A DNA stretch of 4,755 bases from a virus (lineage: Duplodnaviria > Heunggongvirae > Uroviricota > Caudoviricetes): IMG/VR virus record IMGVR_UViG_2609460218_000013; one strand, given 5' to 3'. Below the pieces are notes generated by a model, which saw nothing but the letters and a program-made list of their open reading frames with translations, was not told where the DNA came from and did no database searches. Made by a program: the position numbers and the translations under genes. Positions 259 through 4,106 of this stretch are shown here, piece by piece (the stretch's first letter is position 1; each line of letters opens with the position of its first letter).

Positions 259-474
259 TTACTCTCCCCGTGCAGCCTTACGCTTGTCTTCTTTAATCTT
301 GAAATAAAGGTTTGTCAGATACGTCAGCATGCCAAATACCAGACTACCCAATACACCTATTGCCGCCCACTGTGAGGGCGTGACTTTATCGAGCAACTGT
401 AAAAACCAGTAGCCAGCACTGCCTGCAGAGGTGCTGTAGGCGATGCCCGTTGTTAACTTATCCATGGATTTCAT
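259..474 (-). CDS. Class II holin / pinholin, phage 21 S21 family (EssD/EssQ-like), 71 aa
   Basis: Translation [71 protein letters not shown] matches the S21 pinholin family in length and sequence: two TM segments, a small-residue-rich first TM, a charged C-terminal tail and the Met1-Lys2-Ser3-Met4 dual start. Strong SD GGAGGTGAGG (486..477) sits 7 nt upstream of the ATG at 474..472. The 99-aa track ORF (259..558) is an upstream over-extension with no RBS. Confidence 0.9.
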
Positions 475-664: not shown

Positions 665-1380
665 CTAAGAAAATCTTGATAAATATTGGTGCGGAGGCAC
701 ACCAAAATATCCTCTAAAAACACTTACAAAATATGATGCATTGTCATACCCGCATATTCCCGCCACCTTGCCGACAGTATGGTTACTGTAGATCAATAAT
801 CTTTGCGCCATCATCATTCGTTCTTCAAGAATTAATTTACTAAACGATAATCCTTCGTCTTTTAATTTTCTTTTTAACAAACTCTCGCTCATATATAATC
901 TTGAAGATATATCACAAAGTCTCCATGACGCTGAGATATCCGAGTGAATAATAGCCTTAACTTTACAACCTAAGCTATTAAGACTTCCGAACAAAAAACT
1001 TTGCACTATTTTCTCTGAAGATAAGACAGCAAGACATGCAAGTGATATTTGATTTCTAACTACATCCACGGTTTTGCTATCACAATTCAAGCATGCAACC
1101 AAGTTCTTTAACAATGAAAAATCTTCACATTCTACTATCAAGTATGACGGATAAAACCTTCTTACAGAAAAAGGATGAGAGTGTGTAGTTTTTAAAGAAA
1201 ATCATTAACTGTTTTCTCCTCAACATCTACGATCATTAGATGATCTGTATTTGACGAAAAAAGATCTTTTAAATTGTATTCAATGAGAACAGCATTTCCT
1301 TTTTTAAACAAAATATCTTCTTTACCAATTCGGACACCAAACGAGTTCAACACCAAAATGATAGAACATATGTATGGCAT
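665..1380 (-). pseudogene. AraC/XylS-family transcriptional regulator (AppY/EnvY-like), disrupted by a -1 frameshift
   Basis: Two track ORFs in different frames (1192..1389 and 665..1141) together give an AppY-like protein of about 238 aa. The N-terminal part (MPYICSIILVLNSF...ILFKKGNAVLIEYN...LMIVDVEEKTVNDF) aligns with the AppY N-terminus; the C-terminal part carries the AraC-type HTH (WRLCDISSRLYMSESLLKRKLKDEGLSFSKLILEERMMMAQRLLIYSNHTVGKVAGICGYDNASYFVSVFRGYFGVPPHQY). The frames join if one T is added to the reverse-strand T4 run (+ strand A4 at 1198..1201), changing NDFL-stop into NDFSLKTTHS. Likely start is ATG 1380..1378 (SD AGGTGG 5 nt upstream) rather than the GTG at 1389 used by the track. 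Confidence 0.75.
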
Positions 1381-1880
1381 ATTATCCACCTGATATCATT
1401 GGGGTTACACCAGGTAAGTATAGGTGGAAAATCAATATTCGCCAGTTCAACAATAAGGAAAATCTCATTGCATCACAACTATAAAACCATGTGTTTAACT
1501 CCAGTTATCGCTCGCCACGGGAATATCTGCGGCAGCAGGCCAGTAATGGGTTAAGTGATAACAGGTGTCTGGAAATATAGGGGCAAATCCAACTCACAAA
1601 AAACAAATCATTAAACTAATCTGTTATATTATAATATCTGCGTGCAATAATAATATTATATGCTCTTAATATTCACTTGAAATATCTTCATATAAAAACA
1701 GATTGAATAAAATCTTTTGGGGCTGGTATGTTTACCAACATTAAATTGCATCTCAATGTTTTCTTTAGCGTGAACAGGATTTTTATAAAAACTGACACTA
1801 TGAGCATCATAGCGTAGTTTTTACGATTGTAAATATCCTGCATACAGGAACTCATCACTTTCAGATGATATCGCATACAG

Positions 1881-2840
1881 TTAATTCACCATCAGTCTTA
1901 GAGCCAGTTCTTCCGGATAGGGATCGAAGTAATTCTGTGTAAGCAAGTAATCATTAGGATACTCACCCAGATAATGCTTCAGCAGAGTCAACGGCGCAAG
2001 AAGAGGCAATGTGCCAAAGCGATAGTTAAGTATAACCTCGCTCAACTCTTTACGCTGGCGTGTACTTAAGTAATTACTAAAATACCCCTGTATATGCATC
2101 AGCACATTCGTGTGATTTTTACGTGATGCTGGTTTTCTGAGAATCGCCATCAGATTATCACGATACACCTCAAAGTATGATTCAAGGTCCGCCCACTCGT
2201 GTATTGCAGCCACAAATGGTCCCATATCTTTATAGCCTGCCTGGCTATGCGCCAACAACTGAAGCTTATAACGACTATGAAAAGCTAATAACTCTCTTCT
2301 TGATAATTTCTCCTTGTAAAGGTGATTGAGCTCATGCAAAGCAAAAACTCTTTCAATAAAATTCTCACGAAGCACTGGATCATGTAATCGCCCATCCTCT
2401 TCAACCGGTAGCCAGGAAAACTTTTCCATCAAAGTGCTCGTAAATAGTCCCACTCCATCTTTACGACCTCGATTACCATTTTCATCATAGACACGCACGC
2501 GCTCCATGCCACAGCTGGGAGATTTAGCACAAACCACAAACCCCGATACATCCTTTAATTTGTCCATATAAGAACGACTAAACTCTGTCATTCTCTCTGT
2601 CACATCCTCATTCTGGTCGTGGCTGAAACATATCCGTATATTTCCTTGCTTCGAGCGCACAAGTCGTAGAGCAGGACGCGGAACTGGCAGCCCTATAGCC
2701 ATTTCCGGACATACTGGTCTGAATGTTACCCATTCCACTAATTTGTCCATTAAAAAGTCATCTCTTTTGTGACCACCATCAAAACGAACAGCAGAACCGC
2801 CCAAACAACCGCTGATCCCAATCACAGGTTTTTTTATCAT
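1881..2840 (-). CDS. DUF523-DUF1722 fusion protein (TudS/RudS-like [4Fe-4S] thiouracil/4-thiouridine desulfidase family), 319 aa
   Basis: Intact 319-aa ORF with SD GGAGG (+ strand cctcc, 2843..2847) just upstream. The N-terminal ~150 aa has Cys12, Cys44 and Cys104 (GISGCLGG, PVCPE, VVCAKSPSCG), spaced like the three cluster-ligating cysteines recalled for TudS-type DUF523 desulfidases, plus nearby Glu46 and Ser107/109. The C-terminal ~170 aa is alpha-helical and basic/aromatic-rich, consistent with a YbgA-like DUF1722 domain. Domain calls are by recall, not profile search. Confidence 0.8.
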   Translation of the reverse strand: MIKKPVIGISGCLGGSAVRFDGGHKRDDFLMDKLVEWVTFRPVCPEMAIGLPVPRPALRLVRSKQGNIRICFSHDQNEDVTERMTEFSRSYMDKLKDVSGFVVCAKSPSCGMERVRVYDENGNRGRKDGVGLFTSTLMEKFSWLPVEEDGRLHDPVLRENFIERVFALHELNHLYKEKLSRRELLAFHSRYKLQLLAHSQAGYKDMGPFVAAIHEWADLESYFEVYRDNLMAILRKPASRKNHTNVLMHIQGYFSNYLSTRQRKELSEVILNYRFGTLPLLAPLTLLKHYLGEYPNDYLLTQNYFDPYPEELALRLMVN

Positions 2841-3032
2841 TTCCTCCCCCTTGACTAATTCATTAACACATAAACTTTGTAGTGCACGGACTAAATTGCC
2901 TTTCTGGCTTCATCACTGACAATTTTTCTGTTATTGACTATTCCTAATATAGTAGGAAAGTTCTTTAAGTGATCGGTCGTACTCATCTATCTTTCATACT
3001 TACTCTCAACTATCAAAAGTACAGGATTTATT
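2841..3032. promoter_or_regulatory. Divergent intergenic / promoter region between the desulfidase-like gene (-) and the lipocalin gene (+)
   Basis: 192-bp non-coding spacer between divergent start codons. Contains a direct repeat of TTGACTA (2851..2857 and 2934..2940), a -10-like CATACT (2995..3000) about 30 nt upstream of the lipocalin ATG, and AGGA (3023..3026) as its RBS. No confident -35/-10 pair could be fixed by eye. Confidence 0.3.
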
Positions 3033-3557
3033 ATGAAGTTATGGCCTGTGTTGACTGGCATTGCACTCTCTTTCACTCTTATAGCATGTAAGGCCCCGAC
3101 ACCACCTAAAGGTGTGCAGCCGATTACAAATTTTGACGCCAACCGCTACCTCGGAAAATGGTATGAAATAGCTCGCCTCGAGAACTGGTTCGAACGTGGT
3201 CTGGAACAGGTCAGCGCTACTTATGAAAAACGGAACGACGGAGGGATTCGCGTACTTAACCGTGGATACGATCCAACGAAAAACAAATGGAGCGAGAGCG
3301 AAGGTAAAGCATACTTTACTGGAGATACTAAAACTGCAGCGTTGAAAGTTTCGTTTTTTGGCCCCTTCTATGGTGGCTATAATGTAATCAAACTGGATGA
3401 TGAGTATAAGTATGCTCTTGTCAGTGGTCCGAACAGAGAATACCTATGGATTCTGGCAAGGACCCAAACTATTCCAGATAATGTAAAAGCAGACTATGTG
3501 CGTACCGCTCAAAAGTTGGGATTCAATGTCAATGAACTATTATGGGTTAAACAATAA
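3033..3557 (+). CDS. blc: Outer-membrane lipoprotein of the bacterial lipocalin (Blc) family, 174 aa
   Basis: N-terminal lipoprotein signal with lipobox (MKLWPVLTGIALSFTLIAC, Cys19). Lipocalin motifs are present: FDANRYLGKWYEIAR (GxW), GKAYFTG, LKVSFFGPFYGGYNVI and YLWILAR. Roughly 55-60% identity by eye to E. coli Blc over the full length. Only + strand gene in the window. The symbol denotes the family; this is a prophage-borne copy, not necessarily the chromosomal blc locus. Confidence 0.9.
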   Translation: MKLWPVLTGIALSFTLIACKAPTPPKGVQPITNFDANRYLGKWYEIARLENWFERGLEQVSATYEKRNDGGIRVLNRGYDPTKNKWSESEGKAYFTGDTKTAALKVSFFGPFYGGYNVIKLDDEYKYALVSGPNREYLWILARTQTIPDNVKADYVRTAQKLGFNVNELLWVKQ

Positions 3558-3585
3558 AATCCCCACCCAAAATGATACTTATTAG

Positions 3586-3612
3586 AAAAAAACCAGCCTT
3601 TGGGGAGGCTGG
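3586..3612 (-). terminator. tR'-like rho-independent terminator downstream of Q (reverse-strand orientation)
   Basis: Perfect 7-bp inverted repeat CCAGCCT (3593..3599) / AGGCTGG (3606..3612) with a 6-nt loop. On the reverse strand it reads CCAGCCT-CCCCAA-AGGCTGG followed by TTTTTTT (+ strand A7 at 3586..3592). It lies about 100 nt downstream of the Q stop at 3713, where lambdoid phages place tR'. There is no U-run on the + strand side, so it is unidirectional. Confidence 0.65.
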
Positions 3613-3671
3613 CTAAATCAGGAAACAAGCTGTTATATGATAATAACTACGTTGCGATTCCAACATTTAAA

Positions 3672-3700
3672 ATGTTAGACTAATGAAAATCAGACAGCAA
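3672..3700 (-). promoter_or_regulatory. Candidate late promoter pR' (reverse strand TTGCTG-N17-TAACAT)
   Basis: Reverse-strand -35-like TTGCTG (3700..3695) and -10-like TAACAT (3677..3672) with a 17-nt spacer, immediately after the Q stop and about 60-80 nt before the terminator hairpin. Placement fits pR' but the hexamers are only moderate matches and alternatives exist. Confidence 0.25.
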
Positions 3701-3712
3701 CTTTTCCTTTAA

Positions 3713-4089
3713 TTATTTCGAACAATCAGCATCCATCTCCAATCGGAGATCCAACACCATCAGCATGCCCTCCACTACGCCCTCAGCTTTCTGGAGCATC
3801 CTGCCAACCCAACAATCAGATCGCCCATGCTTACGTGCAAGCGCCATAAAAGTCATGCCGCCGACATAATAGTCCACCAATAAATCATGTAAATCGCTGT
3901 TGTTTTTTTCAGGCGAGCCATACATTCACAAATGATCATCGCGTCATCGTCACAGCATTGCGGACGAGATCTTACTTTTGAAGGAATTAATCCCTTAAAA
4001 CCGGCGGCAATGGACGACCAGGTCACATCTTCATGATTATTAGCCGCCCATGCCCCCCAACGCTCAAGAACCATCTGAATATCACGCAT
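3713..4089 (-). pseudogene. Phage antitermination protein Q (short QuuD-type, ERWGAW motif), disrupted by a -1 frameshift in an A7 tract
   Basis: Two overlapping track ORFs (3853..4104 and 3713..3925) in frames offset by one. The N-terminal part ([62 protein letters not shown]) has the LERWGAW signature of the Q antiterminator family. The C-terminal part is [63 protein letters not shown]. They join into about 125 aa if the reverse-strand A7 run (+ strand T7 at 3903..3909) were A8. Likely start is ATG 4089..4087 (GGAG 7 nt upstream), not the TTG at 4104. Confidence 0.7.
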
Positions 4090-4106
4090 CAACTTACTCC
4101 ACAAAA

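Follow-up and report, generated by a model that had tools for sequence, protein, structure and literature searches.

The window, meaning the whole 4,755-nucleotide stretch of Caudoviricetes DNA analyzed here (IMG/VR record IMGVR_UViG_2609460218_000013), carries on its plus strand an open reading frame for a protein of 174 amino acids (3033..3557) that begins with ATG and ends with TAA. An AGGA sequence (3023–3026) lies six bases upstream of the start codon. The product belongs to the Blc type of bacterial lipocalins, with scores that are far above chance level. Specifically, it matches Pfam Lipocalin_2 (PF08212; E = 7.5e-43, 146.4 bits against a cutoff of 24), the NCBIfam model NF007786 “outer membrane lipoprotein Blc” (312.6 bits, above the cutoff of 267; residues 1–174 on a profile of 176 positions), and the Blc structure 3MBT in the PDB (E = 8e-67, residues 20–174 without gaps). 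The Pfam search returned matches to lipocalin families only, and the protein retains all 40 family positions that are conserved in at least 97% of sequences. Its PHROG, number 2809, is labeled “unknown function.”

The first 18 residues constitute a predicted lipoprotein signal peptide, which is followed by a cysteine predicted to be lipidated (3033..3089, plus strand; Cys19 codon at 3087–3089). A lysine at position 2 occupies the n-region, residues 3–18 form a hydrophobic core with a mean hydropathy of 1.86, and the sequence GIALSFTLIAC, ending in the lipobox L-I-A-C, fits a PROSITE-type rule. The residue at +2 after Cys19 is Lys, not Asp, and Cys19 is found in 194 of 200 aligned homologues. 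Thus, both parts of the first-pass annotation's description, a Blc-family protein and a lipoprotein, agree with the profile matches and with the lipobox rule. Judging from the sequence and from what is known of Blc, signal peptidase II would cut the precursor before Cys19, and this cysteine would be lipidated. Because residue +2 is Lys, the Lol system would then be expected to sort the predicted lipoprotein to the outer membrane.

An alignment with E. coli Blc, which had also been suggested as a check, is ungapped over residues 20–174 and gives 62% identity over the mature protein. This alignment to solved Blc structures assigns the protein to the lipocalin fold, predicted to comprise an eight-stranded antiparallel barrel and a C-terminal helix. 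Because this level of identity already fixes the fold, no fold search was needed. An AlphaFold2 model made from a 20-sequence alignment was too poor to be useful (mean pLDDT of 59.6) and was set aside. The ligand pocket is more strongly conserved than the rest of the protein. When the contacts are defined as the 19 residues within 4 Å of the ligand in a Blc co-crystal (PMC8177097), 18 are identical in the phage lipocalin, compared to 62% identity across the mature protein, and the sole difference is K77R. The barrel would therefore be expected to bind an amphipathic or hydrophobic ligand at the outer membrane, as suggested by analogy with Blc. Given a pocket that barely differs from the one in Blc, the candidate ligands are lysophospholipids, fatty acids, and tetrapyrroles such as heme or porphyrin.

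The closest relative of the window (L001) places it within a Qin-like lambdoid prophage. The flanking genes identified by Pfam searches all lie on the minus strand and encode a DUF968/YdfU protein, the Q antiterminator, an S21-type holin, and YdfR. The Q gene (3713..4104, minus strand; PF06530 type) is present as two open reading frames that match Pfam residues 1–64 and 63–118, having been split where a T-run near position 3902 has lost a single T; the relative carries an intact version of 125 amino acids. At the other border of the slot is a class II holin of 71 amino acids (259..474, minus strand; Phage_holin_2_1, 9.6e-34) that resembles EssD and is annotated as essD in the relative. Between these borders, other related phages carry different cargo, including OmpD or another porin, CspB, and DNA adenine methylase, which makes the interval from Q to the holin a true hot-spot for cargo. 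The lipocalin gene itself is bordered by conserved phage modules, is found in some related phages but not in others, and occurs on three lambdoid backbones (Qin-like, DLP12-like, and lambda-like). These findings bear out the earlier description of the gene as phage-borne and in a moron position.

Two additional cargo genes share this slot. One encodes RudS, a tRNA 4-thiouridine desulfidase of the YbgA family (1881..2840, minus strand) that matches the Pfam families 2-thiour_desulf (TudS/DUF523) and DUF1722. The other encodes an AraC-family regulator of the YdeO/GadX type (665..1389, minus strand; HTH_18 and HTH_AraC), which in the window is broken into open reading frames of 158 and 65 amino acids by single-A insertions at positions 1175 and 1198. 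The intact form of 237 amino acids in the closest relative matches models for YdeO, HilD, and GadX, each below its cutoff. A remnant of the right end of IS2 (1497..1590, strand unassigned; approximately 89 nucleotides, 95.5% identical) matches an IS2 end in locus L174, is flanked by the 5-bp direct repeat AACTC, and is missing from the closest relative. With its frameshifted Q and AraC genes and this IS2 remnant, the window represents a decayed copy of a Qin-like prophage. A search of the three cargo proteins against PADLOC defense models yielded no matches. Likewise, a tRNA scan of the window found no tRNA.

The lipocalin is not an isolated piece of cargo, but travels 1:1 with RudS. Among 5426 complete E. 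coli genomes, the lipocalin is present in 1135 (~21%) and RudS in 1136. Of 80 IMG/VR loci, 71 preserve the gene order holin-AraC-RudS-Blc-Q, which is also shared by the three lambdoid backbones. Third-position GC content (GC3) is 0.41 for the lipocalin gene and 0.40 for the RudS gene, while that of the AraC gene is 0.30 (overall GC of 0.33). In E. coli BL21(DE3), which encodes an identical lipocalin protein, the lipocalin gene is intact and the RudS gene is truncated by IS3, indicating that the genes do not strictly depend on each other. RudS function, as well as the membership of RudS genes in light-responsive MerR/LitR operons, has been established experimentally, and the orthologue from phage 1H12 (gp66) is the tested protein “RudS_vir” (PMC11417400).

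The relationship to chromosomal lipocalins indicates where this gene pair came from. The phage protein is 59% identical to Blc from E. coli K-12 and 70–80% identical to lipocalins from Enterobacter, Leclercia, and Buttiauxella. Wherever the genomic context is recognizable, lipocalins that are 56–64% identical to the phage protein occur in a frdD-(ampC)-blc-gdx setting, as in K-12. Members of a second lipocalin group are instead encoded divergently from a MerR-type regulator and/or RudS in 10 of 10 genome loci with recognizable context, and the chromosomal RudS proteins at those loci are 70–72% identical to the window RudS (72% for the YbgA protein whose gene adjoins that of the closest chromosomal lipocalin). 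Three metagenome contigs (L007, L177, and L178) show the same divergent lipocalin arrangement. An operon of SDR, amine oxidase, DUF1365, and CFA-synthase-like genes is headed by the same regulator in Cedecea and Scandinavium. In a neighbor-joining tree, the E. coli phage lipocalins nest within the MerR-linked clade, which is split from canonical Blc with a bootstrap value of 100/100.

Neither synteny (frdD-(ampC)-blc-gdx/sugE-ecnB) nor the tree grouping supports orthology to E. coli blc (b4149), and Buttiauxella carries both paralogues (L020 and L026). The phage lipocalin is a paralogue of blc and no copy of the chromosomal gene of E. coli. Thus, the comparison with Blc made in the first-pass annotation holds at the level of the protein family, but equivalence with the chromosomal gene does not, given the bootstrap value separating the two groups of orthologues. 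Because the lipocalin belongs to a separate orthologue group, knowledge concerning blc carries over by paralogy only.

These data show that the lipocalin and RudS genes entered the phage together, as a divergent pair, from a chromosomal locus in which the lipocalin gene faces away from a MerR/MlrA-like regulator, a transthyretin-like gene at some loci, and RudS. The regulator gene disappeared at the time of capture or later. Loci of the donor type are present in Enterobacter, Leclercia, Buttiauxella, and Raoultella, and are absent from E. coli. The GC3 values of chromosomal orthologues (0.57–0.78) differ from that of the phage lipocalin gene (0.41), and dS is saturated, which together imply that the capture is old and that these loci may not include the true donor. 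As noted from the outset, the lipocalin is the only gene on the plus strand, antisense to late transcription, and in RefSeq relatives it is likewise the sole plus-strand gene annotated over this stretch. However, because the pair was captured in its ancestral divergent arrangement, this orientation is inherited, and by itself constitutes weak evidence for expression in the lysogen.

Part of the intergenic region between lipocalin and RudS (2926..3032, plus strand) is homologous to the region between the MerR and lipocalin genes in the chromosomes of Enterobacter, Leclercia, Buttiauxella, Cedecea, and Scandinavium, and approximately 105 bp upstream of the lipocalin still aligns with it. Within this stretch is a conserved box, AATATAgTAgGAA, whose chromosomal counterpart is interpreted as the −10 element of the leftward promoter of the MerR operon. 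No palindromic operator of the MerR/MlrA type could be recognized by eye upstream of the lipocalin gene, either in the phage or across genera. The conserved boxes make a better fit as the −35 and −10 elements of the leftward MerR-operon promoter.

We propose a putative lipocalin promoter (2965..3000, plus strand) from alignment to the chromosomal regions and manual reading of the sequence. It would consist of a −35 element TTAAGT (2965–2970), a 17-bp spacer, and a −10 element TATCTT (2988–2993) with T and C at −14 and −13. This sigma-S-like −10 (T-C-TATCTT, followed by CATACTTA) resembles the K-12 blc motif TCTACACTTA. An alternative, overlapping −10 element, CATACT (2995–3000), aligns with the CTACACTTA −10 of chromosomal orthologues and K-12 blc. 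The sequence TCATCTATCTTT is constant in the 12 most frequent of 18 upstream variants (86 loci). A strict scan for the sigma-70 consensus called no promoter upstream of the lipocalin gene. With a conserved sigma-S-like −10 in place, expression of the lipocalin in the lysogen is plausible.

Beyond the gene, an intrinsic terminator (3581..3614, minus strand) has a 9-bp stem with five GC pairs (hairpin at 3614–3591) and a T-run. By its position we assign it as tR′ of the late promoter. The hairpin sits between Q and the lipocalin stop codon, 34 bp past the latter, and its T-run is found on the minus strand only, with none following on the plus strand; the lipocalin transcript probably ends at this hairpin as well. 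The stem is kept in the 10 most frequent of 19 downstream variants, except for one base in one variant, and an Rfam scan of the window gave a weak, subthreshold match on this hairpin only. A candidate for the late promoter pR′ lies just downstream of Q (3672..3700, minus strand), with TTGCTG (3700–3695), a 17-bp spacer, and TAACAT (3677–3672). We suggest this assignment on the basis of position, and the strict promoter scan does not call it.

The lipocalin gene shows signs of having been maintained by selection. Among phage alleles, whose lineages differ by up to ~0.2 substitutions per synonymous site, dN/dS ranges from 0.06 to 0.23. The open reading frame is whole in the window, whereas the Q and AraC genes are broken. 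It is also intact in 80 of 80 IMG/VR loci, but this sample is biased and was left out as evidence for selection because the loci were selected through a lipocalin match. The window allele has three substitutions of its own (R52W, G65E, and P145Q). These were rejected as marks of decay since the affected columns are variable in the family, and the protein breaks no column that is conserved in at least 90% of sequences in the homologue alignment. Residue R52 of Blc is located at the pocket entrance (PMC7026729), and R52W is noteworthy solely through the reported pocket-gating role of this residue.

The presence of blc as a phage moron is already published and represented in databases. Specifically, blc was reported as a moron in >50% of 19 lambda phages from the infant gut (Mathieu et al. 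2020, PMC6969025), and the lipocalin is also carried by free phages, for example 1H12 and IdasGreatGrand. The gene of the infant-gut coliphages, like 1H12 gp65 (“Lipocalin Blc”), is the same as the one described herein (96–97% protein identity) and occupies the same place, between Q and the RudS, AraC, and holin genes. What is new is its origin as one half of a pair with RudS from a light-stress locus of other enterobacteria, rather than as a copy of blc.

Comparison with other relatives sharpens this distinction. E. coli Blc (b4149; PDB 1QWD, 2ACO, and 3MBT) resembles the phage protein in family, length, lipobox architecture, and a similar −10 element. However, it belongs to a different orthologue group found in the order frdD-ampC-blc-gdx, whereas relatives of the phage-borne gene adjoin MerR and RudS, and it has Arg at position 52, where the window allele has Trp. 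The closest cellular relatives are the MerR/MlrA-linked lipocalins of Enterobacter, Leclercia, Buttiauxella, Raoultella, Cedecea, and Scandinavium (70–80% identity), which share the divergent pairing with RudS and an alignable promoter region. The phage locus differs from theirs in that the regulator and transthyretin-like genes are missing and the lipocalin gene is much more AT-rich. A lipocalin from Morganella phage IME1369_01 is likewise a Blc-family lipoprotein of a temperate phage encoded near the lysis module. However, it is 50% identical, groups with canonical Blc of the frd-gdx type, is co-oriented with the late genes, and lacks an adjoining RudS, and therefore represents an independent capture. 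Additional “phage” records from Salmonella and Acinetobacter that were matched by tblastn were set aside, as their annotations and sizes (~127–500 kb) would fit bacterial contigs or a plasmid better than phages.

Given these findings, several roles for the lipocalin can be considered. It might be a plain extra Blc that performs the same outer-membrane housekeeping with lysophospholipids and fatty acids in stationary phase, wherein the linkage to RudS is merely historical and light plays no part. The near-identity of the pocket (18 of 19 residues), the sigma-S-like −10 similar to that of K-12 blc, the loss of the MerR regulator in the phage, and the retention of the lipocalin without an intact RudS in BL21(DE3) all fit this possibility, and its likelihood is appreciable, if well below even. 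Yet the hosts already have a canonical blc, and redundancy alone fails to explain both the presence of the gene in 21% of genomes and purifying selection. Retention of both paralogues by Buttiauxella argues for nonequivalence, and linkage to MerR-type stress operons has been kept over two operon types. It is quite improbable that the lipocalin contributes nothing and is carried only through adjacency to a selected RudS or AraC regulator. Although the pair was captured as a single block and RudS activity has been demonstrated, the low dN/dS between phage lineages, the retention of every one of the most conserved family positions, the intact reading frame next to broken Q and AraC genes, and the intact gene in BL21(DE3) despite its truncated RudS are not expected of a passenger.

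Bor/Iss, Cor, and Llp are, like the lipocalin, lipoproteins of temperate phages that are encoded at cargo sites and presumably made during lysogeny. The first-pass annotation had raised the prospect of a similar role in superinfection exclusion or serum resistance. In this scenario, the protein would mask or inactivate a phage receptor, or would protect against complement. An outer-membrane-type lipoprotein in a cargo slot is compatible with such a function; related prophages carry Bor/Iss nearby as well, and membrane proteins predominate among lambda morons (PMC6969025). However, this proposal is unsupported by our analysis, and we regard it as quite improbable. The lipocalin has no sequence or fold kinship with these proteins, and Bor/Iss is a separate gene in the related prophages. 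Its similarity is to lipocalins only, without a match to any PADLOC model. Moreover, chromosomal orthologues outside phages are 76–80% identical and have the same pocket, such that no phage-specific function is needed to account for conservation, and a Blc-like anchoring on the periplasmic face, assumed by analogy, is not obviously suited to complement resistance. A function in the lytic cycle, for example buffering lysophospholipids released by envelope damage so as to prevent premature lysis, could be imagined for a gene that directly adjoins the lysis cassette, particularly as the Morganella phage lipocalin is located between lysis genes and terminase on the late-gene strand. We consider this highly improbable because in every E. 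coli phage examined the lipocalin gene lies antisense to the late transcript that depends on Q, such that late transcription would collide with its expression rather than drive it.

The explanation we prefer is that the captured lipocalin paired with RudS is an envelope protein expressed in the lysogen for the benefit of the host, although we consider this overall account about evenly poised between being right and wrong. The lysogen may transcribe the gene from its own candidate promoter of the sigma-S/sigma-70 type, independently of Q. The product may then guard envelope lipids in stationary phase and under near-UV or photo-oxidative stress, thereby complementing RudS, whose activity clears tRNA of the near-UV chromophore s4U.

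A more specific proposal, which we advance tentatively and think rather unlikely, is that the lipocalin and RudS form a two-gene phage module for near-UV and photo-oxidative protection that is otherwise missing from E. coli, wherein the lipocalin sequesters photo-damaged lipids or photosensitizing tetrapyrroles. Gene neighborhoods and one transcriptome from a distant phylum suggest the link between this lipocalin and light stress. Chromosomal orthologues share their control region with a MerR-type regulator and light-stress genes, and the phage has kept RudS without the regulator. Blue-light regulons under MerR control include CFA synthase and photolyase (PMC5241685), a gene for a lipocalin lipoprotein in Chryseobacterium lacus is induced by light (PMC7064467), and distant lipocalins adjoin photolyase genes in three loci (L060, L083, and L086). 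Because the MerR-type regulator is missing in the phage, any response to light would be constitutive or would occur via host factors.

The gene is common. It occurs in ~21% of the complete E. coli genomes, BL21(DE3) carries it, and in one study over half of the lambda phages from the infant gut had it. Its separation from blc calls for caution against the uncritical transfer of blc phenotypes, including control by RpoS, a role in LPE homeostasis, and the effects that the G84E variant has on the gut barrier. Viewing the lipocalin as a partner of RudS provides a concrete hypothesis that can be tested cheaply. If the two genes do form a photoprotective module, lysogens, which comprise approximately one in five E. 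coli, would better survive sunlit phases outside the intestine, and in Qin-type prophages the R52W allele would come with a changed ligand gate.

An open reading frame of 174 codons at 3033-3557 (+), with an ATG start, a TAA stop, and AGGA six bases 5′ of the ATG, had been read in the first-pass annotation as a phage-encoded lipocalin of the Blc family, and both the observation and the family assignment are correct. The protein matches Pfam Lipocalin_2 (E = 7.5e-43) and the NCBIfam model NF007786, “outer membrane lipoprotein Blc” (312.6 bits; curated cutoff 267), aligns to solved E. coli Blc structures over residues 20-174 without gaps (E = 8e-67), and retains all 40 positions that are conserved at ≥97% in an alignment of 200 homologues. 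Its N-terminus conforms to the lipoprotein rule, with K2, a hydrophobic stretch, and an L-I-A-C lipobox containing Cys19. The residue at +2 is Lys rather than Asp, and the protein is predicted to be lipidated and anchored in the outer membrane.

The phage lipocalin is a paralogue of chromosomal Blc, captured jointly with RudS from a stress locus under MerR control. Its identity to K-12 Blc is only 59%, compared to 70-80% for the lipocalins of Cedecea, Scandinavium, Enterobacter, Leclercia, Buttiauxella, Raoultella, and others. Every lipocalin in the 56-64% range with a recognisable context lies in the order frdD-(ampC)-blc-gdx-ecnB, as in K-12, whereas members of the 70-80% group are arranged head-to-head with a MerR/MlrA-like regulator. 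This regulator is followed either by (transthyretin-like)-YbgA (319 aa) or, in Cedecea and Scandinavium (loci L006 and L008, 1-5900), by SnoaL/SnoaL_2, SDR, amine oxidase, DUF1365, CFA-synthase-like, and DUF2878 genes. We take the latter operon to resemble clusters known from other proteobacteria that serve furan or modified fatty-acid synthesis and photo-oxidative stress, and the adjacent lipocalin may handle the lipid products of such clusters. Both paralogues are present in Buttiauxella izardii, and a neighbor-joining tree places the E. coli phage lipocalins within the MerR-linked clade, split from canonical Blc with bootstrap 100/100.

The partner gene, at 1881-2840 (-), encodes a YbgA-family protein 70-72% identical to the YbgA of chromosomal MerR-lipocalin loci, and about 105 bp 5′ of the phage lipocalin can be aligned with the intergenic region of those loci. 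GC3 is 0.41 for the lipocalin and 0.40 for RudS, and the two genes co-occur one-to-one in E. coli (1135 of 5426 complete genomes for the lipocalin, 1136 for RudS). Synteny, upstream alignment, tree, composition, and co-occurrence thus indicate that the divergent pair was captured as a block, with loss of the regulator. That the lipocalin runs antisense is therefore a legacy of its capture as part of a divergent pair. Synonymous divergence (dS) is saturated against all chromosomal relatives, whose GC3 is far higher than that of the phage gene. The third cargo gene, a YdeO/GadX-like AraC-family regulator at 665-1389 (-), is of separate origin; it is AT-rich (GC 0.33, GC3 0.30), occurs in 922 of the E. 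coli genomes, and is intact in 60 and disrupted in 12 of 80 IMG/VR loci. It may group with the prophage acid-resistance regulators PsrA, PsrB, and PatE.

YbgA-family proteins that are TudS+DUF1722 fusions are RudS, a [4Fe-4S] tRNA 4-thiouridine desulfidase (PMC11417400), and the full fusion encoded in the window identifies its product as RudS. Overexpression in E. coli of its orthologue from phage 1H12, gp66 (“RudS_vir”), lowers tRNA s4U, as does that of further enzymes; RudS reportedly also lessens growth arrest after UVA, and E. coli is described as being without it (PMC11417400). E. coli’s own YbgA is a stand-alone DUF1722 protein only. The phage RudS gene shares the late-operon orientation, so its expression is possible in lysogens as well as in the lytic cycle.

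RudS genes occur in light-responsive operons under MerR-family (class II LitR) regulators (PMC11417400), and photolyase and CFA synthase are among the members of blue-light regulons under MerR control (PMC5241685). The ties of the phage lipocalin to light are indirect. They comprise the conserved place of its relatives beside a MerR-type regulator in two operon architectures, the light-induced lipocalin lipoprotein gene that adjoins a carotenoid cluster in Chryseobacterium lacus (PMC7064467), and adjacency to photolyase genes. This last arrangement recurs outside Enterobacterales, where a photolyase homologue lies directly 5′ of a distant Blc-like lipocalin in three Bacteroidota loci (L060, L083, and L086; ~5600-7500). 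We tentatively propose, as a possibility, that the lipocalin is functionally paired with RudS against near-UV or photo-oxidative stress.

Blc binds fatty acids and lysophospholipids, and also heme (~1.4 micromolar) in the same cavity, and the authors of that study left open that the true ligand is another tetrapyrrole (PMC8177097). Of the 19 Blc residues within 4 Å of the ligand in this heme cavity (PMC8177097), 18 are identical in the phage lipocalin and its chromosomal relatives, the exception being K77R, against 62% identity overall between the mature proteins. It is thus very likely, judging from the pocket residues, that the phage protein binds the same ligand class as Blc, and it may handle amphipathic lipids or tetrapyrroles of the envelope. 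The Qin-type allele, found in the window, BL21(DE3), and strain 1585m1, carries R52W (codon 3186-3188) together with G65E and P145Q. Other phage alleles have Arg at position 52, as do 153 of 200 homologues (Trp, 1 of 200). In Blc, R52 is described as lining the pocket entrance, near the G84E variant tied to lower LPE binding (PMC7026729).

The first-pass placement of the gene in a prophage, antisense to late transcription, was also borne out. The nearest complete genome is 99.9% identical, and there the region is part of a Qin-like prophage. The minus strand carries, in order, DUF968/YdfU, Q antiterminator (PF06530 type), YbgA-family, AraC-family, S21-type holin, and YdfR genes. An intrinsic terminator with a T-run (3614-3591, -) that separates the stop codons of Q and the lipocalin is by its position the tR′ of the late promoter, with a candidate pR′ at 3672-3700 (-). 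Q-modified late transcription would therefore cross the lipocalin antisense and the YbgA-family, AraC, and holin genes sense.

Compared to its nearest relative, the window has lost one base from a T-run in Q near 3902, splitting the gene (3713-4104, -; intact at 125 aa in relatives) into ORFs of 83 and 70 aa, and has gained single A residues at 1175 and 1198 that break the AraC gene. A 94-base insertion at 1497-1590, absent from the relative, is a solo IS2 end remaining after insertion and deletion: ~89 nt match the IS2 right end (95.5% identity), bordered by a 5-bp direct repeat, AACTC. Because all three small indels sit in homopolymers, they could be sequencing errors, and the copy is either decayed or an assembly with such errors. 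The lipocalin ORF is intact despite the indels in Q and AraC.

The −10 element of K-12 blc is TCTACACTTA, and that of the MerR-linked orthologues is CTACACTTA. Upstream of the phage lipocalin are TCTATCTTT and then CATACTTA, with TTAAGT 17 bp 5′, and TCATCTATCTTT is constant in the best 12, by frequency, of 18 upstream variants (86 loci). A strict promoter scan did not call this putative site. The lysogen may make the lipocalin without any need for Q, from a weak promoter of the sigma-S/sigma-70 type.

A somewhat unlikely alternative to pairing with RudS is that the gene supplies a plain extra Blc with no connection to light. Loss of the MerR regulator agrees with this, as does BL21(DE3), which keeps the lipocalin and Q intact while IS3 has left only 147 nt of RudS (locus L004, 4469-6525, a stretch that is without the AraC gene, holin, and remaining lysis region). 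That the lipocalin is a mere passenger is very improbable, given its retention in decayed prophages and dN/dS values of 0.06-0.23 among phage alleles, which indicate purifying selection.

The first-pass proposal of superinfection exclusion or serum resistance, in the manner of Cor, Llp, or Bor, went unsupported and seems very improbable: the protein matches lipocalin families only, PADLOC returned no match, and related prophages carry Bor/Iss as a gene of its own. A role in the lytic cycle is the most doubtful reading, since the gene is antisense to the late genes, although the lipocalin of Morganella phage IME1369_01 (5001-5516) is co-oriented with them. That lipoprotein, encoded between lysis genes and terminase, is 50% identical and of the canonical frd-gdx type. 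It was acquired independently, and thus temperate phages have captured Blc-family lipocalins at least twice.

As an annotation and listing, the phage lipocalin is already known from databases and print; Mathieu et al. 2020 (PMC6969025) count blc among the morons, present in more than 50% of 19 lambda phages from the infant gut. The exact protein occurs on at least 1000 contigs, is identical in BL21(DE3) (B21_RS08030, WP_000780584.1), and the gene is found on 130 IMG/VR contigs and, among phages in culture, in IdasGreatGrand, Jouyvirus 1H12, and the Lambda_ev series, under the label “Lipocalin Blc”; PHROG 2809, to which it belongs, is labelled “unknown function.” A 2.1-kb contig from a MAG labelled Candidatus Nanosynbacter (JARKOR010000135.1) carries the lipocalin and Q, at 97% and 98% identity respectively, and this Saccharibacteria-binned contig is almost certainly a binning contaminant. 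Full-text literature searches found no functional test of the phage lipocalin, and BL21(DE3) offers a natural lipocalin-positive, RudS-negative strain for experiments. What this analysis adds is that the gene is a paralogue and shares with RudS an origin in a stress locus under MerR control, together with the testable hypothesis that follows.
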